NCBI GenBank assembly: GCA_951406725.2
Contig: OX597825.1
Span: 45,198,001-45,262,000 of the forward strand
Length of the DNA stretch: 64,000 bases
Direction of reading: 5' to 3'
Source of the DNA: Octopus vulgaris
Taxonomy: Eukaryota
This document shows, in pieces, positions 8,246 to 64,000 of the stretch. The stretch's first letter is position 1. Each line of letters starts with the position of its first letter. Position numbers and translations under genes: made by a program. The notes beneath the pieces were generated by a model. It worked only from the letters and a program-made list of their open reading frames with translations. It had not been told where the DNA came from and made no database searches.

Positions 8246-8276
<31 letters not shown>

Positions 8277-8399
8277 GGAGAGAGAGAGAGAGAGAAAAGT
8301 GCAGAGATAGGCTTAGAAAGGTTGGAAAAATAAAAGCAACAGAAAATTATTTCAGGTAGCCAGAAGGTAAGCTAGATGACAGGTCTATATAGCTAATAG

Positions 8400-10800: not shown

Positions 10801-10971
10801 TTCTGATTACTTACTCAGTTACTATTATCTCAACTAACACTGCAGAATTCCTGAAGTAGATCCAACAGAATACACCCCAACTGCAGATGACATGAGGTAG
10901 CCCAAACTGTGCCAGTGCTTTACTCAACACATTAACACACTAATCAACATGTACTCATTAGTCCAAAATAT

Positions 10972-11007
<36 letters not shown>

Positions 11008-11293
11008 CATTCACTGATAACCTATATACAAATGCAAAGGCACTTTATTTCACATTGCTCCAGTTCACTCAGCTGTAGAAATGAGTTGTGACGTCACTGG
11101 TGCTAAGCCGTATCAGCCTTTGCCATTCCCTTGGACAACATCATTGGTGTGGAGGGAGGAGGGTGGTAGGCATGGGCAGCTGCTGGCCTTCCATAAACAA
11201 CCTTGCCTAAACTTGTGCCTAGGAGGGGAACTTTCTAGGTGCAATCCCATTGGTCATACATGGCCGAAGGGGGTCTTCAGACTTTGCCCTTTT

Positions 11294-11337
<44 letters not shown>

Positions 11338-11338
<1 letters not shown>

Positions 11339-13887: not shown

Positions 13888-13934
<47 letters not shown>

Positions 13935-14186
13935 CATCCATATACATACAATAGAGAGATGTTTTTGTTTTACTTTTAACACGTAATACTGAAATAATGG
14001 AGAAGATATGATATTGCTGTGGGCCCACTCTAGGCAAGAAGTTAAACATTTTTTTTGCCGATGACACTACATGGACCCAAAGTAAGGCATGTGTAAAATT
14101 TGAATGAAATTGGTTGTGTAGTTCTCAAGTTTTAGGGAAACACACAGACAGACAGGCACACGTTCTCAGTTTTATATATATAGAGA
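11338..14186 (-). mobile_element. Non-autonomous Helitron carrying nested insertions
   Basis: Minus strand starts A|TCTCTATATATATAAAA at 14186 and ends with the hairpin atgacccggc-aac-gccgggtcat followed by CTAG|T at 11338. These are canonical Helitron termini. Confidence 0.75.
11595..13165 (-). mobile_element. ORF1-only (HAL1-like) non-LTR element with frameshifted gag-like zinc-knuckle ORF
   Basis: Adjacent ORFs 13001-12780, 12722-12513, 12550-12062 and 12191-11757 form one broken ORF with YYKCGLKGHIRANC (decayed CX2CX4HX4C). No ORF2. Ends in aataaagaaa. Candidate 15 bp TSD acacacaacacat(c/a)g at 11580-11594 and 13166-13180. Confidence 0.75.
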
Positions 14187-25300: not shown

Positions 25301-25965
25301 TGGTAGAACATAAACAATAGCACCTTACCAACCCACATCAAATGAACAGACAGAGCATTTTGTGGACATTTTTAAAAGAGCTTTGAGAAAAGCAAACAAG
25401 GAAGTCACAGACAAAGTCACTCTGCAACAATTCCTAAGGGTATACAGGGTGACACCAAACCCCAATATACCAGTAGGAAGTTCACCAGCAAAACTGATGT
25501 TTGCAAGGAAGGTAAAATCAGTTTTTGATAAACTGTTACCTGGCAAGGAAAGAAAAAGTACCAGGAAAGACAATCCAAAATTTTTCAAAATTGGTAATAA
25601 GGTGTACATGAGGTCATATAAAAATGGAAAATAGTACTGGGAAGAAGGCAAAATTACAAAGTACATAGGAAAAATGATGTATGGAATTAAAAGCAGAAAA
25701 GGAATTGAAAAAAGACACAGAAACCAATTGAAGAAGAGATTCATAGAAAATGAACCAGACAGATTAGAAGAACCTATGGAATGGCTGTATGACACATTCC
25801 AGGTACTAACACCATTACAGATGGTTTACAGGTGGTTGAACCCAGGTGTATAGACATCAAAAAGGAAAAATATGAAGCTGGAAAAAATGCTAAAATGGGA
25901 GGAGGGGTGAATAAAGTAAAATAAAATTACTTGCTTCCCAAAGAAAAAAAATTACAAGGAGAGAT
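19366..25965 (+). mobile_element. Cluster of three or more decayed Ty3/Gypsy copies in the same orientation
   Basis: LTR 19366-19602 (TGTTGT...ACAACA); gag (EFKYDPEEGVTFEAY); protease twice (QLDMGCDITII, QLDIGSDIMII); RT twice (FKPKRMVPF, FSKL.LSE.YLQ, LPFGVKVVPAIFQ); RNase H; integrase (H.GHP.I..MK, CRGC, VVDSFTKW, SDNGTQF); PPT aaagagggaga + second LTR from 22944. Confidence 0.9.
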
Positions 25966-25974
25966 GCAACAACT

Positions 25975-27432
25975 CAGTGGGTATACCACGAATTTCATCT
26001 CTATTTCCTTCCTTCAATTCATCCAGCGTCCTTGACTGACTCTTAAGGTAGCCCCACAAGAAAAAATCACAAACAGACAAAACCAGTGATTGTGGATGGG
26101 CAGTGAATGTCACTGAATCTTCAGATGACAGTTACTGAACAAATCTTGCACAGCTGCCATTGATTGCCTTGTAGTGTGCAATGTCACCCCATTCTGTGGA
26201 AACCAGGCATTATGAAGTTGTGGAAAATTGTTCAATGCAGGTGCAACAAAAGATTGCAGCATCTCAACATATCGATCCGAATTGACAGTCTTTGTTATCC
26301 CATTTTCATTTTCAAAAAAGTAAGGTCTGATAACATCATGTGATAAAACTGCACACCATACTGTTACCTTGCGGCTGTGTAAAGGGCATTAATGATGTTT
26401 TTTAGGGTTGCTGCCTGCCCAGTAACGTTAGTTCTGCTTGTTCACATAACCTGTGAGATGAAAATGGATCTCATCTGATATCCTCAGCTTGTCTAGAAAT
26501 TCATTGTTTTCATTTATGTTTTCCATAATTGTTTGACAGATGTCTAATTACAATTGGTGATCATTCTCCTTCATTTCTCGCAAAATAGGAACTTTTGAAA
26601 AATCCAACAAACATAGGAAAAATTATAGAAAAATTATAGAAAACAAAAAATTATAGAAAACAAACAAAAACAACGAATTTCTCGATAAGCTGTGGATGTC
26701 AGCTGAGATCCATTTTCATCTCACAGATTATGTGAACAAGCAGAACTATTGTTACAGGGCAGACAGCAACCCGATAAAAATTCCCGAATGACCTTTACAC
26801 AGCAGCAAGGAGACAGTTTTGTCACATGATGTCATCAGATCTTACTTTTTTTGAAAATGAAGATGAGATAACAACAATTGTCTCTTCTGATTGGTATGTT
26901 GAGATGCTGCAATCTTTTGTTATACCTGCATTTTCCACAACTTCATGAAGCCTAGTCTCAACAGGATGGGGTAACATTGCACACTACAAGGCAATCAATG
27001 GCAGCTGTGTGAGATTTGTCCAGTCACTGTATCATCTCAAGATTCAGTGACAATGGCCCCAAAAATCACTGGATTTATCCGTTTGTGATTTTTTTCTTGA
27101 GGGGCTACCTTAAGAGTCAGGTCTACATGACTCAACCAAGGACACTGGATGGATTGAAGGAAGGAATTACAGATGAAATTCGTGGTATACCCACTGAGTT
27201 GTTGCAGCAAGCAATAGAGAGTCTCAAAGGCAAATTGGTAGAATGCATGCATAGAGGAGGGTACCATCTACAGGACGTAATTTTCAGACATGAATAATTT
27301 GGGTTACTAATTCTTAAAGGGCAAGTTGTTTAATTTCTGTCAATAAATCTTTTTGTTGGATTTGGATTTTTCATATTTTTATTGGGTTTTTCAAAAGTTC
27401 CTATTTTTTTTGTGTGTGTGTGTCACCCTGTA
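25975..27432. mobile_element. Two divergently oriented Tc1/mariner (rosa/DD41D-like) transposase fragments
   Basis: SDEIHFHLTGYVNKQN on minus (about 26480-26430) and its homolog on plus (about 26700-26750); FFLRGYLKSQVY in ORF 27016-27297; TIR-like aaaataggaacttttgaaaaa at 26582 and its complement near 27388, ending caccctgTA. Confidence 0.8.
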
Positions 27433-27776: not shown

Positions 27777-29730
27777 CTATGACTCTGTAACTTTCATCAC
27801 CTGATCCAGCAATTTGATACCTCTGTAATTACTTCTATCTAAGGCATCAGCTTTAATTTTGTAACAGTTGACTATTGTTCTGCTACACCAATCATTGGGT
27901 ATCACTTCTTTGTGAACCACCTGATTTACAATACAGGTGACTAGACCATAACCCACATCATCCAAACCTAGGGTACTGTGGTGGTGGAACAATGTAGTAG
28001 ACAGGGCCATTAGAGCTAAGAAACAGGCCTGGAAGGCATGGAAGAATAGGGGTAGCAGGATACTGCATCAGATTGCTAGAGGGGGTGCTAGGAAACAAGT
28101 ATATCTAGCCAAAGGAGAAGCAGAAAAGAAGAAGTTTGCCTATGAGGATGAAAGAACTGAAGTGTTTCAGATTGCAGGACAGTGTATGAGAGAATGTCAT
28201 GATGTCATAGGAGAGAAATGTGTCCATATGGATGATGGTGCACTTGCATGTAATGATTCGGCAAAGAAAGAGGCTTGGAAATGTCGCTATGAAAAACTGC
28301 TGAATGTGGAGGATGAGTGGGAGGAGGAGAGTCTGCCAAATGTTGACCCAATTGAGGGACTGGCTACCCAAATCGACAGTTCCATGGTAGATACAGCAAT
28401 TAAGGATACAAAGACAGGAAAAGTTGCCAGCCCATTAGGAATCTCAACTGAGATGCTTAAAATATCTGGCAGTATGGGTTATGGTCTAGTCACCTGTGTT
28501 GTAAATCAGGTGGTTCACGAAGGAGTCATACCCAATGACTGATGTAGCAGAACCATAGTCATTTGCTACAAAGGTAAAGCTGATACCTTAGATAGAAATA
28601 ATTACAGAGGTATCAAATTGCTGGATCAGGTGATGAAAGTTACAGAGAGAATCATAGCCAAACTAATCAGGGAGATAGTTAGTTAGATTAGATATGATGC
28701 AGTTTGGTTTTGTGCCAGGGAGAAGTACCACTGATGCTATATTTCTGGCAAGGTAACTGCTGGAGAAATACATAGCTAAAGATAAACTGTTATACTTGAC
28801 CTTTGTTGATGTGGAGAAAGCCTTTGGCAAGGTCCCCCAATCTGGTATCTGGTGACCAATGCGGAAACTAGGGATAGACAAGTGGTTGGTGAGAGGTGTA
28901 CAAGCCATGTACAAGGATGCTACCAGTAAGGTGAGGGTTGGCAATGAGGACGGTGAGCTGGCAGAAAAGTTAGTATGCTGAGCGAAATGCTTAGCAGTAT
29001 TTCGTCTGCCGTTACATTCTAAGTTCAAACTCTGCCAAGGTCAACTTTGCCTTTCATCTTTATGTGGTCGATTAAATAAGTACCAGTTATGCACTGGGGT
29101 CAATGTAATAGACTTAATCCTTTTGTCTGTCCTTGTTTGTCCCCTCTATGTCTATCCCCCTGTGGGCAATAAAGAAATAAATGAGTACAGTGAATAATTC
29201 AGGGTACAAGTAGGGGTTCAGCCCTTAGCCCCCTCTTGTTCATCATAGTCCTCCAGGCAATAACAGAAGAATTCAAGACAGACTGCCCCTGGGAGCTCCT
29301 CTATGCTGATGACCTTCCTCTTATAGCCGAATCACTACCTGAACTAGAAAAGTTCCAGGTATGGAAGCAAGGTCTAGAATCAAAGGGCTTTAGAATTAAC
29401 CTAGAAAAAACCAAAATCTTAGTAAGTAGGAAGGCAAACAAATCACATAATCTGTAGAAAAGGTGTAGGTAGGAACTCCATAAGATGCATCCAGTGAAAG
29501 CTCTGGACACATAAAAGGTACAGCAATATCAGGGGAAGGTTAACAGGGAAACTAGCTTTTGTATGCAGAAGATGCACAGATACAATAAACACTGAAAATG
29601 GGCAGAAAATAGACTCCATCAACTGTCAGGGGGTCAAGCTAGAAGTAGTAGACAGTTTCTGTTATCTAGGTGACCATGTTAGTAATGGAGGTGGATGCTC
29701 TGAGAGTGTAGCTGTAAGAATAAGATCAGC
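27777..29730 (+). mobile_element. Decayed RTE LINE with nested SINE and an inverted piece at the 5' side
   Basis: NYRGIKLLDQVMKV, QFGFVPGRSTTDAIF, FVDVEKAF and LLYADD motifs. 27777-27960 is an inverted copy of about 28475-28660. Confidence 0.88.
28949..29180 (+). mobile_element. Full-length tRNA-derived SINE inserted in the RTE
   Basis: Interrupts gttggcaatgag|...|aatgagtacagtg with a 6 bp TSD aatgag. A-box-like head, conserved core, tail ...tgtgggcaataaagaaat. Confidence 0.85.
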
Positions 29731-33666: not shown

Positions 33667-33786
33667 TGCTTACAGCACCTAGGTTTCCCAAGCGGTCACC
33701 CATCTAAGTACTCACTAGGCCCAACGTTGCTTAACTTCAGTGATCAGATGAGAACCAGTGCTTTCAATGTGATATGGCCATTCATG
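33667..33786 (-). pseudogene. 5S rRNA pseudogene (near full length)
   Basis: Minus strand GGCCATATCACATTGAAAGCACTGGTTCTCATCTGATCACTGAAGTTAAGCAACGTTGGGCCTAGTGAGTACTTAGATGGGTGACCGCTTGGGAAACCTAGGTGCTGTAAGC matches metazoan 5S, with many CpG-type transitions and no oligo-T terminator. Confidence 0.9.
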
Positions 33787-36230: not shown

Positions 36231-36411
36231 CAAATAGAGTAGGAGTTACTTTCTTCTTTTCAGTCATAATTCCCTCCAAAGGCTTAATAGTTTTTAATGA
36301 GACTGGAGAAGGTTCTAAACTTAACTGAGCAGCTGAAGGTATCAAACCTCTCTCAATTAAATTAAGGATTCCCTTTTGGGCATCTTTCTCAGAGATTGAA
36401 GCTGGTATATT
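36231..36411 (-). CDS. IQCH: Internal coding exon of IQCH-like gene (NIPASISEKDAQKGILNLIERGLIPSAAQLSLEPSPVSLKTIKPLEGIMTEKKKVTPTLF)
   Basis: Minus strand: acceptor ctatctttcag, 181 nt open frame (phase 0 to 1), donor gtaaga. The DA.KGIL.LIERGLIP.A motif is recognisable as IQCH from memory; needs BLAST confirmation. Confidence 0.8.
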
Positions 36412-41346: not shown

Positions 41347-44300
41347 TATGGTGTTTATGGTGTTATGGGCTGTGATGAGCTATTTGGTGTTGGTGGAGAG
41401 GATTGCAGATGAGGTAGACAGAAGTGAAGACTGCAGGTGCCGGTGGAACAGCCATGGGGCACGTGTGGGCAGGGAGCACATGCGGACAGTTCGAGCAGAG
41501 ACGGCAGCGTGTAAGGACATGTTTATTTCTTGACAGTGATTGCTCATCCTGCCTGGGTCAACAGCTAAGGTCTTTGTATTTCTTTCTCCTGTTAGCTTCT
41601 TTTCCTGTTGTCTTCTTCCTCCATCACACTACAAGCTATTTCGGCCCATAAAAAAAAAACAAAAAAAACTGATGAGTGCAGTCCGTATTTTGAACAATAT
41701 GATCAAACCATTTTGCAGTGACACGGATGTAGTCACTTAGTTGAAGGAGATGAAGTTGGTGGCGAAGCTCCACGATATAAACGACTTAACGAGTTTTATG
41801 CCGCTGTACCTAGATGGTTCGGCGTTGGCACTGTACCTAGAAATGGAAGAGAGTGCCCAAATTAGCATGGAAAAAATAGGAACCCATTTGATGGAGGACT
41901 TTACAGAGAGAGTGTTCAAAGTGTATGCTCGCCTGGGGAAAGCAAAATGGACTGACGAACAGGTCGACGTATTTGCGAATGAACTCAGAAGATTGACTAA
42001 ACTGGCAGGATATGAGGGAGAATCACTGGACCAAACGGTTAAGTTAGCGTTTGTGAAACACTTTCCTGACCACATGTCGGTTCAGTTGCAAAAGCTGCCG
42101 AACATTAATTCTATGGTGATGGCAGACATTGTATCTTGGGCTCGTGTGCTAGTTTCATATTGCAAGACCGCCGGTAACAGCAACTGCAACAATGAAAAGT
42201 GGCTGAGCAAGGAGTAGCGGAGAGGAGTCAAACAAGGAACGTGTGCGACCATTCAAAGGATAGTGTTTCCGGTGTCAGGGCCCGCACATGGTACGAGACT
42301 GCAAGTCACCCAAGCCTGAGGTCATTTGCTACCGGTGTTGAGAAACAGGACATATAGCCAGCGAATGTCTGTGGGGAAACTGCGCTGGTAGTTGTCCCTT
42401 CGAATCAATAGAAGTGCATTTATCATCAAGAGACGAGCCGAAGGAGCAAAGTAGAATGATAGAGTGGAGGAGAAGACGACCGACATGATACAGGAAGTCT
42501 TGGTCAGAGTGAGAGCAGAGGATCCGGTGAGGGGCAGTTGGTATGTTCCCAAAGCAAAGAGCAGGATTGTATGGTGTAATGCCAGGAGCATCGCAATAAG
42601 GGTTGTCTTGGAAGTGGGAGGCATCGTGGTGAAAGATGCAGCCTGGCTCAGGAAGACGGATGACTGCAATTTATATCAATGTGGCGGAGTTGGATGTCGT
42701 GTTGAAAGGAAGGAACCTAGCCTTGAAGTGGGGGGGGGCTGCGCACCATAGAAATCAGGACCGATTCAACCACTGTACTTGGTTGGGTAACAGCAGTCAT
42801 CACCAATCAGTGGAGGGTGCGAACCAAAGGGGCCGCAGAGATGTTGGTAAAGTGTCGATTGGGGATACTACGTGAACTAACCGCTGAGTTTGATCTGAGG
42901 CTGAGTGTGATCTTTGTGCCTTCTGAGAAGAACAGGGCAGACATCCTGACCAGGGTAAAGCGAGCCTGGTTGCAGGTGCCAGAGGATGCGGAGAAGGCTG
43001 TGGCTGCAGTATGCCGTCTGAGTGACTCAGAGTTGAGGAGATTGCATACCATGCATCACATGGGGGTGGACAGGATGTTGTTCCTAGCCAGGAAAGTCGA
43101 CTCCGATGTAACAAGACAGAGCATGCAGAGAGTGATTAGCAGCTGTGACAGGTGCCAGTCCATCGACCCTGCTCCAGGTATACATGAGGCGGGAAGTATT
43201 CCAGTAGACCACGACTGGAAACGACTGGCAGTGGACATTACACACTACCAGCAGGGGACATACCTCTCAATGGTTGACTGTGGACCGGGGCGGTTGGCCA
43301 TATGGAGTGAGATGAAGATGGGGACCACAGAGGAACTCGTGAAAGTACTAAATGAATTATTCCTGGAACGAGGCTCCATGGATGAGCTGCTTCTGGATAA
43401 TGGCACTGCATTTCACTCGGAGGTGCTGAAAGAAATGCTTGATGGGTGACAGGTCAACCGCTTCTTCAGGGCAGCATACCAGCCAAGTGGAAATGGGGTA
43501 GTAGAAAGGCATCATCGTACCATCAAGACCATGGCAGAGAGGGGCCACATTTCACCAATCACGGCTGTATTTTGGTACAATATGTCACCCAGGTCAGGAC
43601 AGGCTGGGGAGTTGGTTCCACACAGGGCAATATTCAGGTACGAGTGGAGGCATCCATGTACTGCATCAATGCGACCCGGTGCAAAGGAAGAGCATACCTT
43701 CGTGCAGGTTGGGGAAGAAGTTTGGGTAAAAACCCCAAATGCACGGTGTACATCACGGTGGGAAAAGAGAACAATAATCTCCATCAATTCAAAGAACAAT
43801 GTCTGTGTCGATGGTATGCCACGCCATGTTTTGGATGTGCAGAAGATTGTCAATGCCTTAGAGGATGGAACCAGCAGCAGTGGGCAAGAAGATGAAGACA
43901 GCAACAGTAGGCAAGAAGATGAAGACAGCATCAGTAGGCAAGATGATGAAGCCAGCAGCAGTATGCCAGGAACGCAGGCCAGTCCCGGGGTTGCACAGCG
44001 ACCACAGAGGGAGTGGCACCCTCCTCCCTGATTAGCTGATTATGAAACCAGTTAAGGTGTGAGTTCGAGAGCGAAGAGTGAGTGGGAAAGCCAGTTGAAT
44101 GATCTGTAGATCAGAGGGGCATGTGGTGTTTGTGGTGTTATGGGCTGTGATGATCTACGTGGTGTTGGTGGAGAGGATTGCAGATGAGGTAGACAGAAGT
44201 GAAGACTTCTGTCTACTGGGGCCGGTGGAACAGCCACGGGGCATGTGTGGGCAGGAAGCATGTGCAGGCAGTTCGAGTAGAGACAGCAGCATGTAAGGAC

Positions 44301-51800: not shown

Positions 51801-52717
51801 TAGTGATGATATACTAAAATTACAATAATCTAGGACAGTTATAACTGCCTCTCCTTAAAAAAGAAGAGATTCTATAATAATGACATTGTTACATTCAGTT
51901 GATTTTACAATATCTTCAGTATTTTTGGTCAGTAAGAAGAGAAATAGGAAAGCCCATAGTATTCTTAGATTTTCCAATATACCCTAAACAATTGGTTAAC
52001 TGGGTATATTTAGCAAGGTTAGGGTTTCTTTTTGAACTGTTTCAAGACAGATATTGTTGAGATGAAAATATATGCTATAAAGATTTTGCAGAATGGTGTT
52101 TATCTGAAGAAGAAAGAATGGAGAAATGCTTACAAAAAGACACGAAAAGAGAAAAGGAAGTATAGTAATGGACGAGGTGAAGCTGGAAGAAACTAGCTAA
52201 GGTGGACAGGTACCTGCTTAGAAAGATTAGATGTAATAGATTGGCAGAGCAAACATTGCAATGTAGTGTGTGTGTGCATGTATGCATTTGTGTGTGTGTG
52301 TGCACATGTGCACACATATGTTTGTGTGTGTGTGTATGTGTAAGACTGTGTATGTGTGTATGCATGTGAGACTGTGTATGTGTGTATGTGACTCTGTGTG
52401 TGCATGTGCACATGTGTATGTGTATGACTGCATATGTGCAGCTCTGTGTGTGTGAGTGTATGTGTGTGTGACTTTGTGTCTGTGTGTTTTTGTGTCATTT
52501 GTGTGTTAGGTGCATCATTCTAGATATGAAAGCAATCCAGACACTGAAATGCAGCCTTGATGAAATGTAAAAGTATCACCAGTATGAAGCATTAAATATT
52601 GTCAACCTGGCATTACAAAAGAAATTGATTGTTTCAGTTTTCTATTCCAGAACATTGTTCCACAGATATATTACTAAATATTATTCCCAAATATTGGGAA
52701 TATAGGTCATTACTTAC

Positions 52718-52807
52718 CAATGGGTCAAAGCGATTCTGTTTGGGAAGACTGACCAGAGGTTCAACTGTAGTACCAACAATAACTTTTTGTCCTGAACCAG
52801 GTGTCTC
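52718..52807 (-). CDS. IQCH: Internal coding exon of IQCH-like gene (ETPGSGQKVIVGTTVEPLVSLPKQNRFDPL)
   Basis: Minus strand: acceptor ttttttttcttgtttag, 90 nt open frame in phase 0/0, donor gtaagt. Phase-compatible with both neighbouring exons. Confidence 0.75.
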
Positions 52808-53212
52808 CTAAACAAGAAAAAAAACAAAAACAAGTCTGTAAAGAATGAAATCTTCAGATATCATTTTAATGTGAATGTTTGTGCATATATGTAAACATAC
52901 AGATATCTATGAGTGTGTGTGTGGTGGGGTGCATGATCAGTAGGTGGTGAAATTGATAGAGAGTAACTAACAACTCAGAAGTTATGATTCATATCCTGCA
53001 ACTAGGACTGCCCCTTGACCTACATGATGAAAGCATTTAAATCTTAAATGAGCAATGAAGGGATTCTGTCTTGTTTTTGCTAGTACATTTGAGATACATT
53101 TTGATGAGAGCAATATCTTTACAGCTAACCACTTACCTTTAAAGTCAGTGCCCTTCTCAATGAAGCAAATTGTATTTGTTTTTTCCCTCGAATATGCAAA
53201 TTAGAGAAGAGT

Positions 53213-53830
53213 TACAGGGGTTGGACAAAATAATGGAAACACCTTAAAATTTCAAACAAATTTATTTTAATATGGGGTAGGACTACCATCGGCAGTAATT
53301 ACTGCTTGAATTCTACGAGGTATGGACTAATACAAAGTTTGAATTGTTTCCAGAGGAATTTTTGTCCATTCTTCAGCTAAAACAATCTCTAGTTCTCGTA
53401 GTGATGATGGTGGAGGATATCAACTCCTTACTTGTTTTTCTAAAATGCACCATAAATGTTCAATAATATTGAGATATGGGGACTGTGGTGGCCAGATAAG
53501 ATGTTCAACTTCACAAGAATGTTCCTCATGCCATTCAGTAACAACTTTAGCTCTGTGAATTGGTGCATGCATTATCATCCTGAAAGGATGTGTTTCCCTC
53601 CAGAAGCAGTTCCACAACCATAGAATGAATTTGATCAGATAAAATGCTTAAATAGTTTTGACTATTAATTCTGCCATGAGGGGAAACCATTGGGCCGGCA
53701 GATTTCCAAGATATAGCTCCACCAGATCATCACAGATACTCCTCTGTATTTAACAGTTTAAAGAAGGCAGTCTGGGTCAAATGCTTCTTTTGGCTGTCTC
53801 CACACGTTTACTCGGCCAATGGTCAGAAAT
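53213..53830 (-). mobile_element. Tc1-like transposon 3' half
   Basis: WPPQSPYLNIIEHLW motif in ORF 53420-53617; terminal TA|caggggttggacaaaataatggaaacacc. Confidence 0.85.
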
Positions 53831-56013
53831 AGTATTCAAGCACTATGTGCTTGTAGTTTTTCATTCCATGCATTTCCTGGTTTTTAGCTCAAGCTTTGTA
53901 TGTGTAACTGCCAACCAATTTAACACATTTATCTCAGCATTTATTGCTCTTTTGAACATGTTAACAAGGGTTGTTTGGTAGAATGAGCTTTCTATTCCAA
54001 TAACCAACTATCAGATCCCTCCCAAGTGATTTCTCATTCAACAGTTTTACAAAAATGGTCAGGAGAGTTTCGCTGTGGATATTTTGAGAGAAACATTTGT
54101 ACAGTACTCACTCCATAGCTCATCTAACCACTTTGTGTAATGGGTATGTTGCTTGTTTATATTCAGAACCCTCACCAAATGCCTCTAAAACATTAAAGGG
54201 GTGAGCTTTTACAACTTTCACCACATGAACTTTCATTCTATGATACACTACTTGTGAGTTTATTGCACACAGACACAAAGTATGGATTAACTAGAAGTTA
54301 CTTTTGTTATTATCCTTAAGGATCTGCTTACTTAAATTTTTCAATGTCTCTTTGTTCCCCACCTCACCTTATTTATCTCCTCTTCTATATCCACTAATAA
54401 ACAGAGACATTTTTACCTGGGTACTTGAAGTTCTGACTCTGCAAAAATCAAAAACACAAAAACATGATCTTTTTCATGACAAAACAAAATTACTTAATTT
54501 AGTACTTCAATCAACCTTTTTCTTTGATGCTTTAGAAACATAAATATTCGAACTTTTCTTTGCTAACATGCATGTAATGTCTTTCCCTCCTTTTTCTCAC
54601 AATAAATCCTGGTGATTTCAAGCTCACTGCCATATAGATATGCTGGCTAGCTGAAGATATGACTACCTCCACCTCACCACCAAATGCCAGATATAACATG
54701 GCTTTAATCTCCTTTTGAGGCTGTCAGTATCTTATCTTGTACGAAGCTCTGATAAGTATCCTCCCTCACATATCAAGGGTCTGCAGCTATACAACTCACA
54801 CTAACTGCACTTACAACAATTATAAATAATAATAATTGCTAATTGTAATAGCACTGACGATTGACCAATGGATAGTGAATTAAATGAAAGGTCATGAATC
54901 TTCTGATTGTTGGCAAGCCAGGTACAAGTCTTCTTATTCCCTTCACACACAGCAATAGGAACAAACAGCAGTACTACCATAAATTTACCTTTTCCTGTCA
55001 ATTCCAAAGCCTTAGGGCTACCACCATCAATATAGACACAATATAAGGTAAATCTGGTGAAAGTGTGTAGTTGCTGGCGATGTGTACAACTGGCAAAATG
55101 GAAGGGACTCTGCCAAATTTCTCAAGAAACAGCAATCAAAAATTCTTGTGGATGAGTAAAAGCAATGGAGTGACTGGTTTATGTGTATTGCCATGAGGCA
55201 TGATTAAATAAAGTAAATAAGGTGTCAGAGTATGAAATAGAATAATTAAGCTGAGATGAGTTATAGACAGCTCAATAACAACATTTATCTCCATATATAC
55301 CTTACAGTCAGGATTGACAGACAACCAGAAGAAGCAGTTCTACAGGACCCCTTCTGCAAACTACTTCAAGAAAGATTGACAGTGACTTCATTGTTATGGC
55401 TGGTGACTTTAATGGATATGTTGGTCAACTCTATAAGGGCTTCCATGATATCCATGGAGGCTATGGCTTTGGTACAAGGCATGAGGAGGATTTGAAAATA
55501 TTGGATTTCTGTGACATAACAACACAGATCAAGAAACCAGCCAGTCTCCTCGTCACCAACCAATTTGGCTAACACACATATCAGATTTCCTCAAACCCAT
55601 GAGGCAGATCACTCTTCTAATCCTTCCTTGGTCACCTGAGCAAATGCACACGCCCTTTATTCAACCCCTCTAGTGTTGATACATGAAAAGTGCACCCAGT
55701 GCACTCTGTAAAGTGGTTGGTAATAAGAATGGCATCTAATTGTAAAAACCAAACCAAATGACACATATGAAAATCAATGGGAGATAACTCAGGCAGGAGA
55801 TCCATCCAACTCATGCCAGCTTGGAAAGTGGACAAAATAATGATGAGGGTGATGAGGGTGATGCTGTTGTTACTGACACTGATGCCGACTATGACACCAA
55901 TGCTGACAACACTAACATTGATGCAGACACCACCACTGCTGGCAACAATGACAATGGCAGCAAAAATGATGATATGTGATCATTGAAATTATAGAAATAA
56001 TGGAGGAACTTAC

Positions 56014-56133
56014 TTTGCCTTGTCTTTTCTGTGAAATCAGAGGTAGTTGTATGCCATAAGTATCGTAAAGTATATGGCGATTTTTTGCATGGAAAGGGTC
56101 AATGACAGCTTGAAATGCAAGCTGCTGCTTTAG
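56014..56133 (-). CDS. IQCH: Internal coding exon of IQ motif-containing protein H-like gene (LKQQLAFQAVIDPFHAKNRHILYDTYGIQLPLISQKRQGK)
   Basis: Minus strand: acceptor tatttatttcag, 120 nt open frame in phase 0/0, donor gtaagt. The peptide resembles the IQCH N-terminal DP..H.....YGI.LP.I segment as I recall it. Missing from the ORF track because it is short. Confidence 0.75.
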
Positions 56134-56370
56134 CTGAAATAAATAGAATTAGAGTGTACAATATATGATTATCTAACAAATGAACTATACTGTAGTTTAA
56201 ATATAAAAAAGAATATAAATTCCACCTATAGTCATAAACAGAAAAATTAAACTGTAAAACTTTAAAATAAAATATTGCAGACAGTCTTTGTACTGTCTAT
56301 GACAGCTATTAAATATATCTGAACAATCATTACTTTAAGTAAATAACAAATTACTCAAAACAAAATATTG

Positions 56371-56730
56371 TGAATAAACTTCACTGAAAAAATATATATA
56401 TATATTTACGAAGTCTAGACAGGTATCTTCAGCTAGCAGGCCTTGCTACTTTAGACTGATGACGGGCAAGACCCAGAAACATGCATGTCTCTAGATGCAG
56501 GCCTAGCTGTTGGGGGTGCTTGTCTCCCCTTCGTAAATATATAAGGACATAGGAAATGTGTCAAGGCCGACAGGAAGTGTCGATGCTTCCGAGGGTTAAA
56601 TAGCAGTGATGTACTTCCCTTTACGGGATTGTCACGTTAAGTTGACAGTATACAACCACTCTATCACTCCACCACCGCACATATCTCTCTGAGATATTTA
56701 GAAATTTAATATTTCTAATTTTGGTGATCA
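56371..56730 (+). repeat. Hammerhead-containing ~360 bp repeat unit, copy 1 (intact)
   Basis: gtgaataaacttcactgaaaa recurs at 56370 and 56731. The body matches 59572-59623 plus 62109-62382 at high identity. Confidence 0.9.
56431..56508 (+). ncRNA. Type I hammerhead ribozyme motif, copy 1
   Basis: tttaga-CTGATGA-cGGGcaagaCCCa-GAAA-catgcat-GTC-tctaga. Predicted cleavage after C56489; stem I extends via aggccttgc/gcaggcct. The first stem II pair is a non-canonical C.A. Confidence 0.75.
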
Positions 56731-56884
56731 GTGAATAAACTTCACTGAAAAAAAAAAAATATATATATATATATATATATGAATGTGTATGTATGTGTAT
56801 GTTTGTATATGTATATGTATGTATATGTATGTATATGTATATGTATGTATGTATATGTATATGTATATATATGTATATGTATAT

Positions 56885-59412
56885 ATCACTTTGACCGACC
56901 AGTCCGTCAGGCGTCCATTTGACACCGCTGGTCACAGCACGCTGTCCACTCCTGTCTGGATCGCGCCTTTCTCATCCACGTGATCCCAATCGTCCTCTTG
57001 AAATCGTCACTCCATCGTCGTGGAGGTCATCCGGGTAGTCTTTTCCACTCACGCGGGTACCACTCGATAACTGCGTGCGTCCACCGATTATCGGTGAGCC
57101 GGGCGACATGTCCAGCCCATCTATACTTGCTGCGAGTATACTCTGCGATGACATCTCTCACACCGGACTTCTTTCTGATGATCTTGCTATTTATGTGCTC
57201 TCTCAACGAGATACCAAGCATTGACCTTTCCATGGCTCTTTGAGCTGTTATCAGTCTTTGCTCTTCTCTCTTTGTGGTAGCCCATGTTTCACTACCATAT
57301 AACATTGCAGGCAGAACTGCACTGTTAATGAGGTTGGCGCGGGTGGTCCTGTCCAACCTTCCCTTGAGCACATTCCTTATGCCATTGAACGCCTTCCATC
57401 CAGCCCTTACTCTCCGTGAGATCTCCTTTTTGATATCCCGGCACATATTTACTTCCTGTCCCAGGTGGACATATTCTCTCATCTCCTCTATTTCATCACT
57501 GCCGATCACCATTCTGACCGCATGAACTTTGTTTTCATGCAGTTCATCTTGAGACTTACTGCAGAACGTTGTCTGACCGCATGAACTTTGTTTTCATGCG
57601 GTTCATCTTGAGACCTACTGCAGAACTTTTGATGTCGAGCTCCGTCAGCATGGTCTGAAGCTGATCCATGTTTTCAGCGATGAGTACGATGTCGTCAGCG
57701 AAACGGAGGTGAGTGAGGAGCTTGCCATTGATGTTGACACCACCTTGCCATTTGATGCCTCTGATGATCTGTTCGAGACATGCAGTGAAAAGTTTTGGGG
57801 AGATTGTATCTCCTTGCTTCACTCCCTTCTCGACCAGCACTCGTATGGGTGATGACAGTAGAGCTATGTTGGTGGTGCATCCGGAATTTGCCTCTCTGAG
57901 CAGCTGCACATATTGCGCTTCGATTCCTTGCCTCTGCAGCGAGTTCAGCAATGCGTTGGTTTCGACGCAAAGAGGCAGCTTGTACTCATTTGCTCGCTCA
58001 AGCAGTTGCGTTAGAGCAAATATATGGTCCATTGTGCTGTAGTTCTTCCGGAAGCCTGCTTGCTCCTCGGTTGTTGTTTGTCGAGACGACGTGACAACCT
58101 GTTCAGAATTATCTTCATGAACAGCTTGTACACGTGAGACAGCAGGCATACGGGTCGGTAGTTCTTTAGATCTTCTCTGTCGCCCTTCTTATACAGCAGG
58201 ATGGTATTTGACTCTTTCCACTGCAAGGGAATTCTTCCATCGTCTAGATAGTGCGTAAATCGCTCAGCGAGGATTTTCCAGAGCTGCTCTCTGCCTGACT
58301 TTAGCACCTCCGATGTTATCCCGTCTTTCCCTGGAGCCTTTCCGTTTTTCATCGAGCCGATGGCTCTTTCAACCTCACTGACAAGGATAAGTGGCACGTT
58401 TTCTTCCTGTTGGAGTGGTGGTAACGACTGGACATTTCTGGTAGACTTAAAGAGCTTGGTGTAGAAGTCTTCACAAACTTTTTCCATCTCGCTGTTCTCG
58501 TTGACCGGTATTCCATCTGTATTTTTCAGGGCCATCACCTCCGATCTATATAGTACCATGTCCCTCTTGCATTTCTTGAGGCTCTTCTTTTCCTCTGCAG
58601 CCTTCAAGAGCTTCTCCATCCAGTATGCCTCAAAGTCTTTCTTTAGTTGCTGACGAATCACTCTGCTGAGAATGGAATATTCAATAGTCCTCTTCATATT
58701 TTTCCTCTTCTCGAGTAACTTCGTAGTTTCTTCCGAGATTCTTCCCTTCTTTTCTCTTGGGCATACACCTTTAGCCTTCCTTAAACACTCCTTCAGTTTC
58801 CCTATCGGTGAGTTGTAGTCATCGTCTATGTCGTCTCCTTGGCACCAGTCTTCCTGCATGATGGCTTCCTGCAGCTTTGCCTCGTTGTAGACTCGGACAC
58901 GTTTTCCCTTCGACGCCAAATATAACGCCATCTTCTCCCTCTTCTCGTCGATGACGACCCTCGCCCTTACCAGACAATGATCGCTGATGGTGTTGAATGG
59001 CATCACGACGGAGACGTCATGCAATATGCGTCGCTTATCAACCAGGATGTAGTCGATCTCGCTTCAGTGCTTAGAGTTCGGCGATATCCAAATCCATCTC
59101 TTCCTCTCCCTCTTCCTGAATAGGCTGTTTCCGATGTAGAACTGCCTCGCCTCTGCCATGGTAGCCAAACGTTCTCCTTTCTCCTGACGTATTCCTCTCC
59201 TTGTCGTCCATGTCCAACCTTTGCGTTGAAGTCTCCCATCACGACAGTGTAAGTGGACTTCATAGCTAACCCTTTGTCTAGTTGTCGATAGAATTCTTCC
59301 ACCTCGTCATCGTCGCTGGCACTTGTGGGAGCATAGGTCTGAACAATCTTGAGGGTGGCCTTCCCTGAGAGGTTCACATTTAGTACACCAATCCGTGATA
59401 TCATCACGGATT
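56885..59412 (-). mobile_element. Relatively young 5'-truncated RTE-clade LINE (APE endonuclease + RT) inserted in (TA)n
   Basis: YAPT, MGDFNAK, SDH, GKAPGKDG, NYRPVCLL, QAGFR, GVKQGDTISPKLF, LRFADD, YGSETW and RWAGHVAR motifs; few frameshifts; ~43 bp tandem duplication near 57514-57620. Confidence 0.95.
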
Positions 59413-59462
59413 GGTATATGTATATATATGTATATGTATATATATGTATATGTATATATATG

Positions 59463-59576
<114 letters not shown>

Positions 59577-59623
59577 CAAAGTCTAGACAGGTATCTTCAG
59601 CTAGCAGGCCTTGCTACTTTAGA

Positions 59624-62108
59624 TGGTGACCTCGCAAGGGAGTGTTTGTGTCGGATTTGCAGTTGTGAGTTGAATTTTGTTGTTGCATATTGTTGTTGAA
59701 AATTGTTGCTTTGTGTTGAACGTTATAATTGTTGAATTCTTTGTTGGGTATGCAAGCCCAGACTTATGCGAAAGCAGCAGGCAAAAGCCTGTCTGCTGAT
59801 GCATTACAGTTAAAAGAAGTAATTATTGAGAAGGAAAATCTGAGGAAATACTATGACAGCTTCAAAAAGGAAGGAGACTGTCTGAGAATTACACCACCAG
59901 AAGACGAAGTTCAAAAAGCAGAGACAAAAACGATAACATACAGAACAGTGTGGTCTCAAAAAGAATAGATGTGGCAGAAGTGGAAGAGATTGAAAAGTGT
60001 TTACAAGAAATAAAAGAAAGAACTACCTTCTACAATAGAGGTAGAAAATATGCAACAGTAGAAGTTCGCTTCAAAAATGAAGATGAAGCAAAAAGGAATG
60101 CAACAACAGCGTTGAGATCAGATAAGTGGGTATTACTAACTACTTACTGTGGTAAGTTCCACCGGAACTTGATACCGAAAGAATAGTAGCAGCAATAATT
60201 TACAACTGCAAGGAGGACGTGGACATACTCAAGGTGGAAAAGTCGAATGAAATAAACTGGTGGGGTTATGCGGTGGAAGCCCTAATCCACATAACCCTGC
60301 TAGATTTGTACAACATCCCAGAGGAGTTGGTGTTCCCCGATGAGACACAACTGAGAGTCGTGGTGGAGGAGAGTCCGCCAGTGTGTTATAAATGTAAGAG
60401 CAGAGGGCACATGAAGGATGTGTGTCCTCAAAGAGAAATACAAGAGAAGACGATAACCCTGAAGGAAGAAATAAAAGCTTGGACAGGGGAGTTATAAAGA
60501 GAGAATGTAGAACTACAAGTGGAAGAAGAGATCATGACAACAGATAATATGGAAAGTGGCAACAAGCTAGAGAAGGAGAAAGAAAAGGAGAGAACAGAAG
60601 GAAAAGAGGATAGAAAGTGAACATGGGTGGAATCACCACTGAAAGACCAAAAAAAGAAAATAAAAAAAATAAAAAATTGCCGTAGAGACAGAGGATCGAA
60701 CACACGAAGGGAAATTTACAACAATTAAATTGAGTGAAGGTCAAATGTTGGAGGAAATGGAAATATGGTCAACAAAAGTGGAAGAATGTCTGAAAACATG
60801 CAAGAAAGGAGGAAGACTCAAAGGAAAAAATTTCAGAGCTGTAACGTTGTACTGAAAAGATAAAGAAATTGAGAAAAAATTAGCGATAATGAAAGGTCTA
60901 ACGAGAGTGAAATTGCTCAAGGTGGCTTCGTCATTCATACGTGCCATTCTTGCTACATTCACCCATCTTTTTTTAAAACATTCGCTAGACAAAACTTGCC
61001 TCTCTACTCTCACTTTCCTTTTCAAGTGGTACTTGAAGAAGTTGATGAGAGATTGACCAGAGAGGAAAGTGTTTGTCTCCAATCCTTTCAGACGCGTCCA
61101 CCAGATACATTCTTTCGCCATAGCCACAAGGATGATGAAAATAGCTCTTCCTTCCCGTTTGAAGGAAGGAGGCGTGACAATATTGACGATAGACTCAGCT
61201 GATAAACCGACTCGTCCCACACGTGACAGCAGTTGTTCGACATAAGCCCACAGGTCGGAAATTGTTGGACACTGAACGAGTGCGTGCAGAACGGTTTCGT
61301 CGCTCTGACCGCATCTCGGGCAGGTCGGCCCCGTGTTTCTCGAGCCGTGTCTGTAGAGCTTATCTCGAACGGGTAGCGCTTCTCGGTAGCACTGCCAGGC
61401 CAGGGATCTCTGGAAGTTGTCCATGGGCCCTGGCCCGAAAGTCGTCCTGAACAGGCGGGTCAGGTACTCCTCGTCGACGTCCAGGTTCGCCCCGAGCTCG
61501 TCGTCGTACCTCCCCTCCACTAAACCCCTATAGAATGCTTTGGTTGTGTTGAAGTCACTTAAGGTCGACCCAGGACGGCAGAGTTGCTTGAGAGCAACGC
61601 GACACTCGCGGTGCCATTCGCCCTTCCTCGGCCTCTTTTTGATCCACGACTGCAGTTCGGTCATGGAGACGAGCTGCGGGAAAGCGTGCCTCACAAACGG
61701 CGACCACACCTGTTCACCGTCGTCTACATAGAGCCAGAAATTGAACCCAAGGATATACGATAATGAATTAAAGGCAGTAATATTAGATAAAGAGACGGTA
61801 AATAAATTAATGAATTTGTTTCCAAATACAGTTGTGTGCATTGCGCACTACATTCGATATGACAGTTTACCCTGCATTATAGAGCAGGAAGAATTACTCG
61901 TTTACATTACTGACGAACACCCCGGATAGTATAACTGTAATTGTAAATGAAACTGTGAGCTTTGGGGGGGCTCGTAAGCCATTTCATTTAATTCATTGTT
62001 AATACTTCATTTCATATCATCCTTTCTGTATTTTTGTTATATGTGCCCCATGTCCTGTATTGTTATGTCCCCTTTTCATTCAGGCCAGTGTGCCTATAAT
62101 AAAGAGAA
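59624..62108 (+). mobile_element. ORF1-only (HAL1-like) non-LTR element with 25 bp TSD
   Basis: TSD agctagcaggccttgctact(t/c)taga at 59599-59623 and 62109-62133. Broken ORF about 59750-61929 with CYKCKSRGHMKDVC knuckle; ends tataataaaagagaa; no native RT. Confidence 0.85.
60916..61736 (-). mobile_element. L1/Tx1-clade ORF2 C-terminal fragment (zf-RVT), inserted antisense
   Basis: Open frame with W..YREALPVRDKL...CPRCGQSDETVLHALVQC; GC-rich relative to flanks; bounded by a 7 bp direct repeat gaaattg (60909-60915, 61737-61743). Confidence 0.85.
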
Positions 62109-62186
62109 AGCTAGCAGGCCTTGCTACTCTAGACTGATGACGGGCAAGACCCAGAAACATGCATGTCTCTAGATGCAGGCCTAGCT
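62109..62186 (+). ncRNA. Type I hammerhead ribozyme motif, copy 2
   Basis: tctaga-CTGATGA-cgggcaagaccca-GAAA-catgcat-GTC-tctaga. Perfect 6 bp stem I; predicted cleavage after C62167. Confidence 0.75.
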
Positions 62187-62696
62187 TTTGGGGGTGCTTG
62201 TCTCCCCTTCGTAAATATATAAGGACACAGGAAATGTGTCAAGCATCGATGCTTCCTAGGGCTAAATAGCAGTGGTGTAATTCCCTTTACAGGACTGTCA
62301 CGTTAAGTTGACAGTATACAACCACTCTATCGCTCCACCACCACACATATCTCTCTGAGATATTTAGAAATTTAATATTTCTAAAATGTTGATAATCTCT
62401 CTGAAAGAAATATCAAGAATTATACCAAATCAAACAGAACTTTTGATTGAAAACTAACTCTTAGGTAGTAGCTAGCTAAATGTGACAAGATTTAAACAAA
62501 ACAAAAATTAAAATTATCTTTTTATAGTATTTCTTTTGTATGGTAAGTGAAATTTTCAATTGTTATTAATTTTAATTTTGTTATTATTGTTTTAACATAA
62601 GGGCAGTAGACTGGTAAAATTAGTAGTACATTGGGCAAAATAAACATGGTTTAGCAAAATCAGTAAAGCATGGACAAAACACACACATTGATTAAC

Positions 62697-64000
62697 TGTT
62701 GTAATCCTCTCATCTGTTATGATATCCACTCCAGTATAGCAATATAGTTAGTTAGGCAAGTAAGACCACAACTATCTATGACCGTCTACTTCGTACTCTC
62801 TACCCATACTGATACTGACTGACAGTATTTTTAATGACTACCACATACCACTCATGTGTGAGGGATGTACCATTATTACTATTATCCCCATAACATCTCT
62901 TTTAAGTTTTTCTTTTTTCTTAGGGAGTGTAATTTTATTTCTTTTAATAGCAATAATTTTTACATCACCCCCACCTCCCTGTTTTGAGTTTTTTTAATTT
63001 TTTTATACAGTTACACATTTAATATTTTTTCATTTGGCATTCACTTCCAGGAACTCCATACATTTTCTTTTTCTTACGCTTGTGCATCTGGGTTCAATTA
63101 TTTGTAGTAGCATTGGTACTTGAAAAGTATCATAAAACCATTCTATTGGTTCTTCCATTCTCTTGGGTTCGCTCTCAACGAATCTTTTTTTCAGTTGGTT
63201 CATGTGTCTTTTGTATACCCTTTTCCTTTTACGAAGTATAGCATTTTTCCTATGTGTTTGGTAATCACACCATTCTTCCCAACTTTGTTCTCCATTCTTA
63301 TATGCCCTAACAAATTACCTTTTCACCAATTTTGAAATATTTTGCTGTATTATTTGTTGCAATTTTTCTTTTTTTTTGCCAGGTAGCACTTTGTCAAAGA
63401 CTGATTTTATTTTCCTTGCATACATCAGCTCTGCTGGTGACATACCTGCTGTTGTATTTGAATTTGGCATCACATGGTATACTCTTAAGAATTGTTGTAG
63501 AGCTACCTTATTCGTGACTTTCTTAAGGCTCCCTTGGATGTATCAATAAAGAGTTCTGCATGTCCATGGCTCACAGTGTTTCGGTTTCAGTCTGGACAAA
63601 CGATCCGCAACCTTAGTTTTTTTTTTTATGGTAAAAATTCCATTTTGTAGTCATAATTCAATAATGTAGTGTCCCATTGCTGTAGTCTATTCACTGTGTG
63701 TGTTGGTATTCCTTTTTTTAGAACCGTATATTGACAGTAGTGGACAATGATCTGTTTGTAGATGAAAACTTCTTCCATGTATAAATCTCTGGAATCTTTT
63801 CACATCGAATATGATTGCTAATGCTTCCTTTTCTATTTGGTTAAAGTTCCATTCTGCTGATAATAACTATCGTGATGCATGGGCTATAGCCTTTTTACTC
63901 CCGTCATCATATTTGTGCAGAAGCATAGCTCCTACACTGCAATCCCTTGCATCTGTAGTCAATATAATATCCAACTAATGATAAGTCTGATGTTAAAATG
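62697..64000 (-). mobile_element. Decayed Ty3/Gypsy 3' part, running off the window
   Basis: Minus strand RNase H ([33 protein letters not shown]); purine tract aaaagaga then LTR TGTTAT...ACAACA at 62895-62697; same family as 19366-25965. Confidence 0.85.

Follow-up and report, generated by a model that had tools for sequence, protein, structure and literature searches.

Passages of Cervera & de la Pena 2020 (PMC7229834) describe metazoan non-LTR retrozymes as units of 150–450 bp with a GC content under 50% and target-site duplications (TSDs) of over 4 bp, with units of 350–390 bp in Mytilus galloprovincialis and, in axolotl, a retrozyme (Rtz_353/HHR_Amex2) whose hammerhead is active even though helix II has a U·U mismatch at its base. 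In the excerpted text of a 2026 preprint by Li, Clavereau & Pollet (10.64898/2026.07.22.740005), animal retrozymes are argued to be non-autonomous derivatives of pseudo-LTRs (pLTRs), one of nine predicted Xenopus retrozyme dimers is reported to cleave in vitro, and the 35 species surveyed are given as 31 vertebrates, three insects and one anthozoan, with no mollusc among them. The minimal hammerhead of Penelope-like elements (PLEs), min-HHR, has a helix II of 7–8 bp, a helix I of 4–5 bp and little or no helix III according to passages of Cervera & de la Pena 2014 (PMC4209133), and excerpts of Frangieh et al. 2024 (PMC11167929) report internal initiation of reverse transcription at AT-rich targets for a PLE. 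Published figures put PLEs at 6.83% of O. vulgaris, in 190 families.

In the window analysed here, a stretch of 64,000 nt from Octopus vulgaris contig OX597825.1, an intron of IQCH holds two tandem copies, in permuted arrangement, of a 361-bp non-coding octopus repeat, each bearing a type I hammerhead motif. We consider it probable (about 0.7) that this dimer is a non-LTR retrozyme, that is, a non-autonomous PLE derivative, likely copied from RNA and later split by three insertions. Set against metazoan non-LTR retrozymes as characterised in the passages of PMC7229834, the octopus unit is likewise short, non-coding, LTR-free, tandem and below 50% in GC, with one type I hammerhead, a TSD exceeding 4 bp, RNA that is strongly self-paired, many copies and PLEs in the same genus; it differs in its cephalopod host, a group absent from the hosts named in those passages, its internal AATAAA and A-tract, a helix II with a basal C·A and a palindromic helix III of 3 bp. 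The octopus family differs further in that its copies are apparently mostly 3′-half fragments. With the vertebrate retrozymes in the excerpted preprint (10.64898/2026.07.22.740005) it shares type I hammerhead dimers and a dispersal as monomers, dimers and fragments, and the intronic position of the octopus dimer has parallels there (42–44% of copies in Xenopus), while the TRF-based pipeline described in the same text would miss a dimer interrupted like this one. The parts of the array and its host exon are as follows.

56014–56139, minus strand: IQCH exon, residues 95–136 of the O. bimaculoides protein
56362–56370, plus strand: left copy of a candidate 9-bp TSD of the whole dimer (chance 0.0023)
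56371–56731, plus strand: unit 1, 361 bp, 41% GC, non-coding
56732–56885, plus strand: start of unit 2, with AATAAA hairpin and A-tract, merging into a TA/TATG microsatellite blended with the tail of the first nested insertion, a presumed RTE
59413–59623, plus strand: continuation of unit 2 with its expanded TA run and 5′ arm, 50/51 identical to unit 1
62168–62382, plus strand: 3′ half of unit 2, with a 12-nt deletion relative to unit 1; the family's highest-copy part
62383–62391, plus strand: right copy of the candidate 9-bp TSD, with one mismatch between copies

Further IQCH exons lie on the minus strand at 52718–52807 and 36232–36411, and since residues 1–94 fall outside the window the dimer is placed in the intron upstream of exon 56014–56139. 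It is thus antisense to its host gene, as the preliminary description had it; nothing suggests that it takes part in IQCH expression, and we regard the locus as a fossil.

Unit 1 opens with AATAAA, followed by a short A-tract and TA run, and continues through the helix I rod and the hammerhead to several hairpins, and unit 2 is assembled from 56732–~56885, 59413–59623 and 62133–62382/4. The units differ at 12 of 303 aligned sites and by the 12-nt deletion in unit 2 (~4% divergence), and none of the five scanned ORFs of at least 40 aa within them has a Pfam match. Because unit 2 ends 13–15 nt before full unit length, the array is a permuted ~1.96-mer. It opens with a 16-nt end fragment and A-tract, start and short stop both lie within one TSD, and the array terminates inside the unit without a terminal poly(A), while the junction of AATAAA hairpin, A-tract, TA run and 5′ arm is present twice. 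Both the repeated junction and the end inside the unit indicate that a fixed unit was copied, from a template that was circular or multimeric. Divergence between the units counts against their being identical rolling-circle copies. The AT-rich 9-bp flank duplication is equalled by 0.23% of 20,000 random boundary pairs drawn from the local flanks; the first two A's of its right copy may belong to the unit instead. Two head-to-tail copies of a ~360-bp non-coding unit bounded by this candidate TSD had been proposed, and both proposals hold. No empty allele of the dimer appears among the run-contig rows listed, nor is the empty-unit joint 59623→62133 among the joints listed (15 of 248).

Two nested insertions had been described in the dimer; we find three.

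56886–59412, minus strand: nested insertion 1, a 5′-truncated, frameshifted LINE, presumably of the RTE clade, with EEP and RT domains, within the unit's TA run
59600–59623, plus strand: 5′ copy of a 24-bp TSD flanking nested insertion 2
59624–62108, plus strand: nested insertion 2, an ORF1-only element with a degraded CCHC zinc-knuckle ORF, AATAAA and a short A-rich end
60916–61736, minus strand: nested insertion 3, an inverted C-terminal Tx1/L1-type ORF2 fragment with zf-RVT
62109–62132, plus strand: 3′ copy of the 24-bp TSD, one mismatch between copies; it restores proximal helix I of hammerhead 2

The ORF1-only element with its TSD thus stands as first described, and is inserted precisely where helix I of hammerhead 2 meets C3. 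The ORF2 fragment within it (61% to an Argonauta hians protein) carries its own 7-bp TSD (60909–60915 and 61737–61743), and the empty joint 60908→61737 is present in all three DNA runs examined (X2, X6, X9); we rejected this fragment as a part of the ORF1 element on the grounds that it is inverted, has its own TSD and is absent at the joint in other copies. Likewise rejected were the units as pLTRs flanking the ORF1 element, as the 24-bp TSD splits the ribozyme itself. With a zf-CCHC ORF only, a TSD and a 3′ A-rich end, 59624–62108 fits the description of a HAL1-like ORF1-only element; excerpts on HAL1 (PMC5753468) give the same ORF1-like zinc-knuckle ORF alone, AATAAA end and long TSD, in elements described from mammals, whereas the clade of the octopus element is assigned by inference. 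No protein relative of its ORF1 fragment was found among 166 candidates. It resembles target-specific Tx1 elements in having inserted into another repeat, for which passages of PMC4494074 use more than 20% of copies in the same target as the criterion; its insertion at the ribozyme core is one copy at this locus, and among the matches listed a ~86%-identical relative (X12) runs 254 nt past the 3′ end with no match to the unit. As ~5.3 kb of insertions part its cut sites, this dimer cannot release unit-length RNA.

The two hammerheads and the rod enclosing the first are located as follows.

56399–56543, plus strand: extended helix I rod, ~49 bp in the constrained active fold (z = −7.4), enclosing hammerhead 1
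56450–56495, plus strand: type I hammerhead 1, 6-bp helix I, predicted cut after C56489
62128–62173, plus strand: type I hammerhead 2, with the same core as hammerhead 1 and its cut predicted after C62167

The cores begin at 56456 and 62134. In hammerhead 1, CUGAUGA (56456–56462) is followed by a C·A and a 3-bp helix II, GAAA (56476–56479) and the palindrome ACATGCATGT at 56479–56488, which forms helix III. The core (C3 U4 G5 A6 N7 G8 A9, G12 A13 A14 A15.1, U16.1 H17) is complete in both copies, and 56456–56495 carries none of the 11 substitutions between the units (276 aligned sites). Topology is type I, with an open-ended helix I and loop-closed helices II and III (6-bp extended helix I, 3-bp II, 3-bp III); a type I descriptor matches twice in the window, at these two hammerheads, and once in 100 dinucleotide shuffles. 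The CTGATGA/GAAA/GTC core per unit and the self-complementary stem III of the preliminary description are confirmed by these data, and its short stem II is correct in length (3 bp) and lacked the mismatch at the base, where both copies have C·A rather than the conserved G10.1–C11.1 pair. The same position can alternatively be described as a C bulge with an extra A before G12, and the 40 of 510 run-contig rows listed include no family variant at these two bases. It had also recognised the hammerhead motifs and overlooked the extended rod around the first, and its assignment to the minimal type I class fails: with a 6-bp helix I plus long extension and a short helix II, the architecture is of the canonical retrozyme type, the reverse of min-HHR as set out in the passages of PMC4209133. 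With the Penelope pLTR hammerheads in those passages it does share type I topology, a palindromic helix III suited to dimers and an extra base after A9. The search with hammerhead covariance models that had been proposed as a check returned no hammerhead family from Rfam, even at E ≤ 10, on 56300–56800 and 56425–56515 (the matches listed are microsatellite or chance), and at the gathering score the sole match in the whole window is a 5S rRNA.

As a circle, the unit has an MFE of −123.8 (z = −7.4), and none of 100 shuffles is as stable. In its MFE structure the homodimer is a double hammerhead whose intermolecular helix III spans 10 bp (−142.9 versus 2 × −68.6 kcal/mol), and the active monomer fold lies 3–5.5 kcal/mol above the monomer MFE. 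Since the active structure is not the one of lowest energy for the monomer, cleavage is predicted to work best in the double-hammerhead form.

Judged from public DNA runs, the family is high-copy, with roughly thousands of copies as an upper bound. Summed depth on 62166–62381 is 362k–488k in three of three DNA runs, against 34 for a single-copy contig in X2, where summed contig depth is distinct from copy number and, with short overlapping contigs overcounted, serves only as an upper bound and for rough comparison of parts. Relative to the 3′ part, depth in the DNA runs is 0.16–0.26 over the hammerhead and 0.02–0.035 over the 5′ arm, so that the part downstream of the predicted cut is ~4–6 times deeper than the ribozyme and 30–50 times deeper than the 5′ arm. 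Full units thus appear to be a minority of the family's copies, and no second tandem of the unit was seen in the run data. Run X12, RNA by guess and represented by contigs only, is equally uneven (0.18 hammerhead, 0.015 5′ arm), which counts against a dominant full-length circle, from which flat cover would be expected. In the run search 20 of 24 rows, from nine studies, contain part of the unit and none at least half its words; no run recorded as RNA is among those listed. Contigs that align to the right flank, at 0–2 differences, come from X2, X6 and X9; they extend only 25–27 nt into the unit, below the threshold of 31 letters, and were not counted as bridging. A metagenome scan with a 30-nt hammerhead word gave no loci and a viral-contig scan no matches; the sole metagenome match to a 19-nt word from the 3′ half (L001) was set aside as a chance 21-nt match with dissimilar flanks.

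This predominance of partial copies also fits the ends of autonomous PLEs, and the unit could itself be the pLTR end of an autonomous octopus PLE, with this locus a rare case of pLTRs alone in tandem, left by internal deletion of a PLE, and most genomic copies 5′-truncated ends without an independent circular-RNA life. We think this unlikely. The steep depth gradient towards the 3′ half speaks for it, as do the abundance of PLEs in O. vulgaris, the AATAAA, A-tract and AC-rich stretch near the 3′ end, which recall PLE ends in excerpts of PMC11167929, and the derivation of retrozymes from pLTRs in the text of 10.64898/2026.07.22.740005. Opposed to it are the hammerhead, which is of canonical retrozyme and not minimal PLE type (passages of PMC4209133), the pairing of the 5′ arm with sequence on the 3′ side of the ribozyme, which closes a rod of ~49 bp and makes the unit structurally self-contained, and the unit junction found twice in the array. 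Moreover, Penelope RT and GIY-YIG domains, which mark Penelope elements, gave no Pfam matches in the flanks (52000–56900 and 62100–64000), where the scan covered 68 of the 78 ORFs of at least 40 aa. The preliminary description had posed retrozyme and pLTR remnant as an either/or; membership of the retrozyme family is supported by unit size, GC, tandem layout, hammerhead, TSD, fold and high copy number, and the dichotomy itself is largely dissolved because the preprint, in the text drawn on here, derives the one from the other.

It is quite unlikely, in our estimation, that the repeat is a non-autonomous Penelope passenger with a decayed or dispensable ribozyme, copied from uncut multimers and forming no circles. 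The C·A at the helix II base of both copies and the disfavoured active monomer fold would agree with decay; insertion of a PLE in vitro was independent of hammerhead cleavage (excerpts of PMC11167929), and eight of nine predicted Xenopus dimers showed no cleavage (excerpts of 10.64898/2026.07.22.740005). Against decay, a mismatch in the same position leaves axolotl HHR_Amex2 able to cleave (passages of PMC7229834). The core nucleotides of the octopus hammerhead are also intact and identical in both copies and free of the substitutions that separate the units. Insertion of a single unit followed by local DNA duplication (by slippage or by unequal crossing-over within the TA run, TA runs being recombination-prone), with no multimeric RNA template, would accommodate the ~4% divergence and is very unlikely, since to yield the permuted array, with its end fragment, A-tract and short stop inside one TSD, a local duplication would have to start from an already permuted monomer.

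Under the retrozyme reading, read-through transcription of a tandem source locus would yield a multimeric RNA, the ribozyme is predicted to cut after GUC, and monomers would, by analogy with the family, be ligated into ~360-nt circles. A Penelope RT/GIY-YIG protein would nick AT-rich DNA, and reverse transcription would start within the unit, ~31 nt upstream of the A-tract; an AT-rich target and an ending inside the transcript are shared with the PLE PAc in excerpts of PMC11167929. Copies in which synthesis goes no further than the cut site or the long rod would give the abundant 3′-half fragments, and occasional read-through on a circle or an uncut multimer would give permuted more-than-unit copies like the IQCH-intron dimer. 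This copy was later struck by the LINE, the ORF1-only element and the inverted ORF2 fragment. A far-reaching extension, which we hold to be very doubtful, is that of a living octopus retrozyme (an Rfam-invisible helix II variant forming ~360-nt circles) parasitised by an ORF1-only Tx1-type element that would insert with specificity where helix I meets the catalytic core, its 24-bp duplication leaving the downstream ribozyme intact to cut the 3′ end of the element's transcript.

Our search of the printed literature found no cephalopod retrozyme; motifs from cephalopods may be listed in the supplement of PMC7229834 or in bioRxiv supplements. The unit may already stand under another label in the O. 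vulgaris repeat library (PMC13282606, Zenodo), and repeat libraries probably file it as Penelope, satellite or unknown. If true, the retrozyme reading would extend non-LTR retrozymes to cephalopods, with probably thousands of copies undetected by Rfam models. The natural C·A helix II variant offers a simple test of hammerhead tolerance, and the drop in cover near the predicted cut makes octopus suited to testing which retrozyme template, cut linear RNA, circles or uncut multimers, is copied by Penelope proteins.

The region 56371-62382 holds two head-to-tail copies (units 1 and 2) of a non-coding hammerhead repeat. The feature is real and was well spotted: the two-copy architecture of the preliminary description stands, with a unit of 361 rather than about 360 bp, while the two nested insertions it listed become three, an ORF2 fragment with its own 7-bp TSD and an empty joint having been overlooked.

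56371-56731, + strand: unit 1, 361 bp, 41% GC
56886-59412, - strand: degraded LINE with EEP and RT domains, in a TA run of unit 2
59624-62108, + strand: ORF1-only element with zf-CCHC and an AATAAA end, 24-bp TSD with one mismatch
60916-61736, - strand: inverted C-terminal Tx1/L1-type ORF2 fragment with zf-RVT, 7-bp TSD, inside the ORF1-only element

Unit 2 starts at 56732, is broken by all three insertions, and differs from unit 1 at 12 of 303 aligned sites, with a further 12 nt absent. Since contigs of X12 (a public run guessed to be RNA) carry extra letters at this gap, and the unit 1 base at 62343 is found in 94% of the depth of DNA run X2, both the 12-nt loss and the 62343 change are derived in unit 2. 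The repeat junction occurs twice; unit 2 ends 13-15 nt short of a full unit, and the array is thus a permuted ~1.96-mer, starting with a 16-nt end fragment and an A-tract and lacking terminal poly(A). It is flanked by a 9-bp TSD with one mismatch, a candidate from the preliminary description that is equalled in 0.23% of 20,000 boundary pairs drawn at random nearby. The LINE, which we take to be an RTE, holds a 59-bp tandem duplication (57513-57626) in its RT region.

The core is complete and intact in both hammerheads. Helix I measures 6 bp, helix II 3 bp (closed by a 5-nt loop) and helix III, of palindromic sequence (ACATGCATGT), also 3 bp; cutting is predicted after C56489 and after C62167. 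These hammerheads are the sole two type I descriptor matches in the window (100 shuffles gave one site), in agreement with the core motifs, short stem II and self-complementary stem III originally read in both copies. Bases beside helix I and the loop 2 ends may resemble those making the loop-loop contact in the Schistosoma ribozyme. A rod of about 49 bp (56399-56543, z = -7.4) prolongs helix I, and the circular fold of the whole unit reaches -123.8 kcal/mol (z = -7.4; 0/100 shuffles equally stable). For the monomer, the active fold is less stable than the MFE by 5.5 kcal/mol in copy 1 and 3.2 kcal/mol in copy 2, and the homodimer MFE is a double hammerhead joined by an intermolecular helix III of 10 bp; from these models, dimer-favoured cleavage after GUC is predicted. 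Core substitutions number 0/11 over 276 aligned sites, a weak indication as changes are so few. With helix I of 6 bp, a short helix II and a helix III that is short and palindromic, the architecture is that of the canonical metazoan hammerhead, unlike the minimal PLE hammerhead, in which helix II is long and helix I short (PMC4209133, available text); this replaces the minimal-type reading first given.

A less likely alternative is that the ribozyme has decayed. Both copies have C·A at the helix II base (56463/56475; 62141/62153), or a bulged C with an extra A before G12, where PMC4209133 describes the G10.1-C11.1 pair as highly conserved; this C·A could be the family state or an older pair that decayed before the dimer formed. 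The covariance-model check suggested earlier misses the motif: a scan of the window at the Rfam gathering score yielded no hammerhead, and neither did a search of the unit 1 hammerhead region relaxed to E <= 10. Both observations count against activity. Decay is possible, too, because hammerhead cleavage is unnecessary for PLE insertion in vitro (PMC11167929, available part) and because cleavage occurred in 1/9 predicted dimers in the accessible portion of a 2026 preprint on vertebrate non-LTR retrozymes (10.64898/2026.07.22.740005). The axolotl HHR_Amex2 has a comparable mismatch at the helix II base, U·U, yet is 22% cleaved in one hour as monomer, and its dimer cleaves better (PMC7229834, excerpt).

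Part of unit 1 was found in 20 of 24 runs among those listed, from 9 studies and 4 coded organisms, with no run record given as RNA. Depth from four of these runs (X2, X6, X9 and X12) was compared along 59574-62800. On 62166-62381, summed depth is 362k-488k in X2, 349k-500k in X6 and 23k-35k in X9 (all DNA runs), against 34, 51 and 6.4 on the single-copy flank contig. The resulting ratios of 3,600-14,000 place family copies at up to thousands, an upper bound only, because summed depth does not count copies and is inflated by short contigs that overlap. The 3' half is the high-copy part: relative to 62166-62273, cover (bin arithmetic; X2, X6, X9) is 0.26, 0.18 and 0.16 on the hammerhead part and 0.035, 0.020 and 0.028 on the 5' arm. 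The depth step lies at a bin edge adjoining the predicted cut site (bins 108 nt wide), and could also be produced by subfamilies with other 5' parts or by the reference break at 62109. X12 has the 3' half at 450-951, flank 62490-62800 at 0, and an uneven profile as in the DNA runs (0.18, 0.015), which fits read-through of dispersed copies; its contig cover, from a run that is RNA by guess with library type not recorded, does not point to a full-length circle as the dominant form. Depth on the right flank at 62706-62800 rises to about 4,500 in X2 and X6, so another moderately repeated element would begin there.

In protein comparison over the window, three exons align with IQ domain-containing protein H (IQCH) of O. 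bimaculoides at 93-98%, and the source is an Octopus-type octopod.

56014-56139, - strand: IQCH exon
52718-52807, - strand: IQCH exon
36232-36411, - strand: IQCH exon

Residues 1-94 of the longer isoform were not found within the window, which places 56371-62382 in the intron that precedes the 56014-56139 exon. The hammerheads, on the + strand, are antisense to IQCH, as first proposed, and the dimer's ribozymes cannot cut its pre-mRNA. IQCH introns also hold degraded LTR-retrotransposon fragments at 63033-63866 (-), with an RT RNase H domain match at 63690-63866, and at ~19750-25850 (+) and ~41740-44030 (+), both called from translations. Elsewhere, a full-length 5S rRNA match (Rfam, 90 bits, 33667-33785, -) directly joins a SINE-like body and a TG microsatellite, which occupy the ~200 nt downstream, likely a 5S-headed SINE; one recently active 5S SINE family is reported for O. 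vulgaris (PMC13282606, available text). Long inverted-repeat pairs (3104-4001, 5003-5931, 26355-26822 and 27783-28647; 395 nt at 97%, 226, 166 and 173 nt) are likely MITE or DNA-transposon ends.

As to origin, tandem source loci would be transcribed, monomers ligated into circles, and the RNA copied into the genome by a Penelope protein. The copying step draws on the PLE mechanism, in which AT-rich DNA is nicked and reverse transcription begins inside the RNA (PMC11167929), on a model given in PMC7761336 and on PLE abundance in O. vulgaris (6.83%, 190 families; PMC13282606), each from the available part of its source. Copies begun about 31 nt ahead of the A-tract and ended at the cut site or rod would account for the abundant 3' halves, and the dimer would arise when a circle or an uncut multimer was read through. 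As about 5.3 kb is inserted between the cut sites, the locus copy itself cannot yield unit-length RNA. The 68 of 78 flanking ORFs that were scanned matched neither a Penelope RT nor a GIY-YIG domain; the other 10 were microsatellite frames or overlapped the IQCH exon 52718-52807.

The ORF1-only element, whose ORF1 had no database relatives in the protein search, inserted at the precise point where helix I meets C3 in the second hammerhead. In its long TSD and core-boundary position it is reminiscent of target-specific Tx1 elements, some of which, several in number, insert into other repeats (PMC4494074, excerpt). Targeting of the core boundary is nevertheless improbable, since a 2682-nt X12 contig carries a ~86%-identical relative running 254 nt beyond the 3' end without a unit match, nesting is frequent in this region (three insertions within 6 kb), and the candidate target of a second, distant ORF1-only zinc-knuckle element (11595-13165, -) is unrelated. 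This second element (35% identity to the first over 89 aa, similar 3' tail, AATAAA end, candidate 15-bp TSD at 11580-11594 and 13166-13180) suggests that octopus has a diverse group of HAL1-like elements. The ORF2 fragment within the first matches an Argonauta hians protein at 61%, and its empty joint (60908->61737) was found in 3/3 DNA runs compared (X2, X6, X9). Its family is very abundant: in X2 the summed depth is 1.2-2.1 million, against 34 for single-copy sequence. In typical copies the ORF end is followed directly by a very short tail and then poly(A); the copy here, without tail yet with a TSD, suggests internal priming.

By its testable features the octopus repeat resembles metazoan non-LTR retrozymes as presented in the available parts of PMC7229834 and 10.64898/2026.07.22.740005, the latter treating retrozymes as non-autonomous pLTR derivatives. 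Membership of the retrozyme family, as first suggested, is thereby supported, and the repeat would work like such an element, with cleavage, circular RNA and further full-unit tandems as predictions. Among the literature matches listed, in their available text, no cephalopod retrozyme is described, although the unit may already be present in supplementary data or in the O. vulgaris repeat library; for giant squid, 235 Rfam hammerhead-1 loci are reported without further study (PMC6962438, excerpt). The octopus repeat is a probable additional retrozyme of an already known kind.
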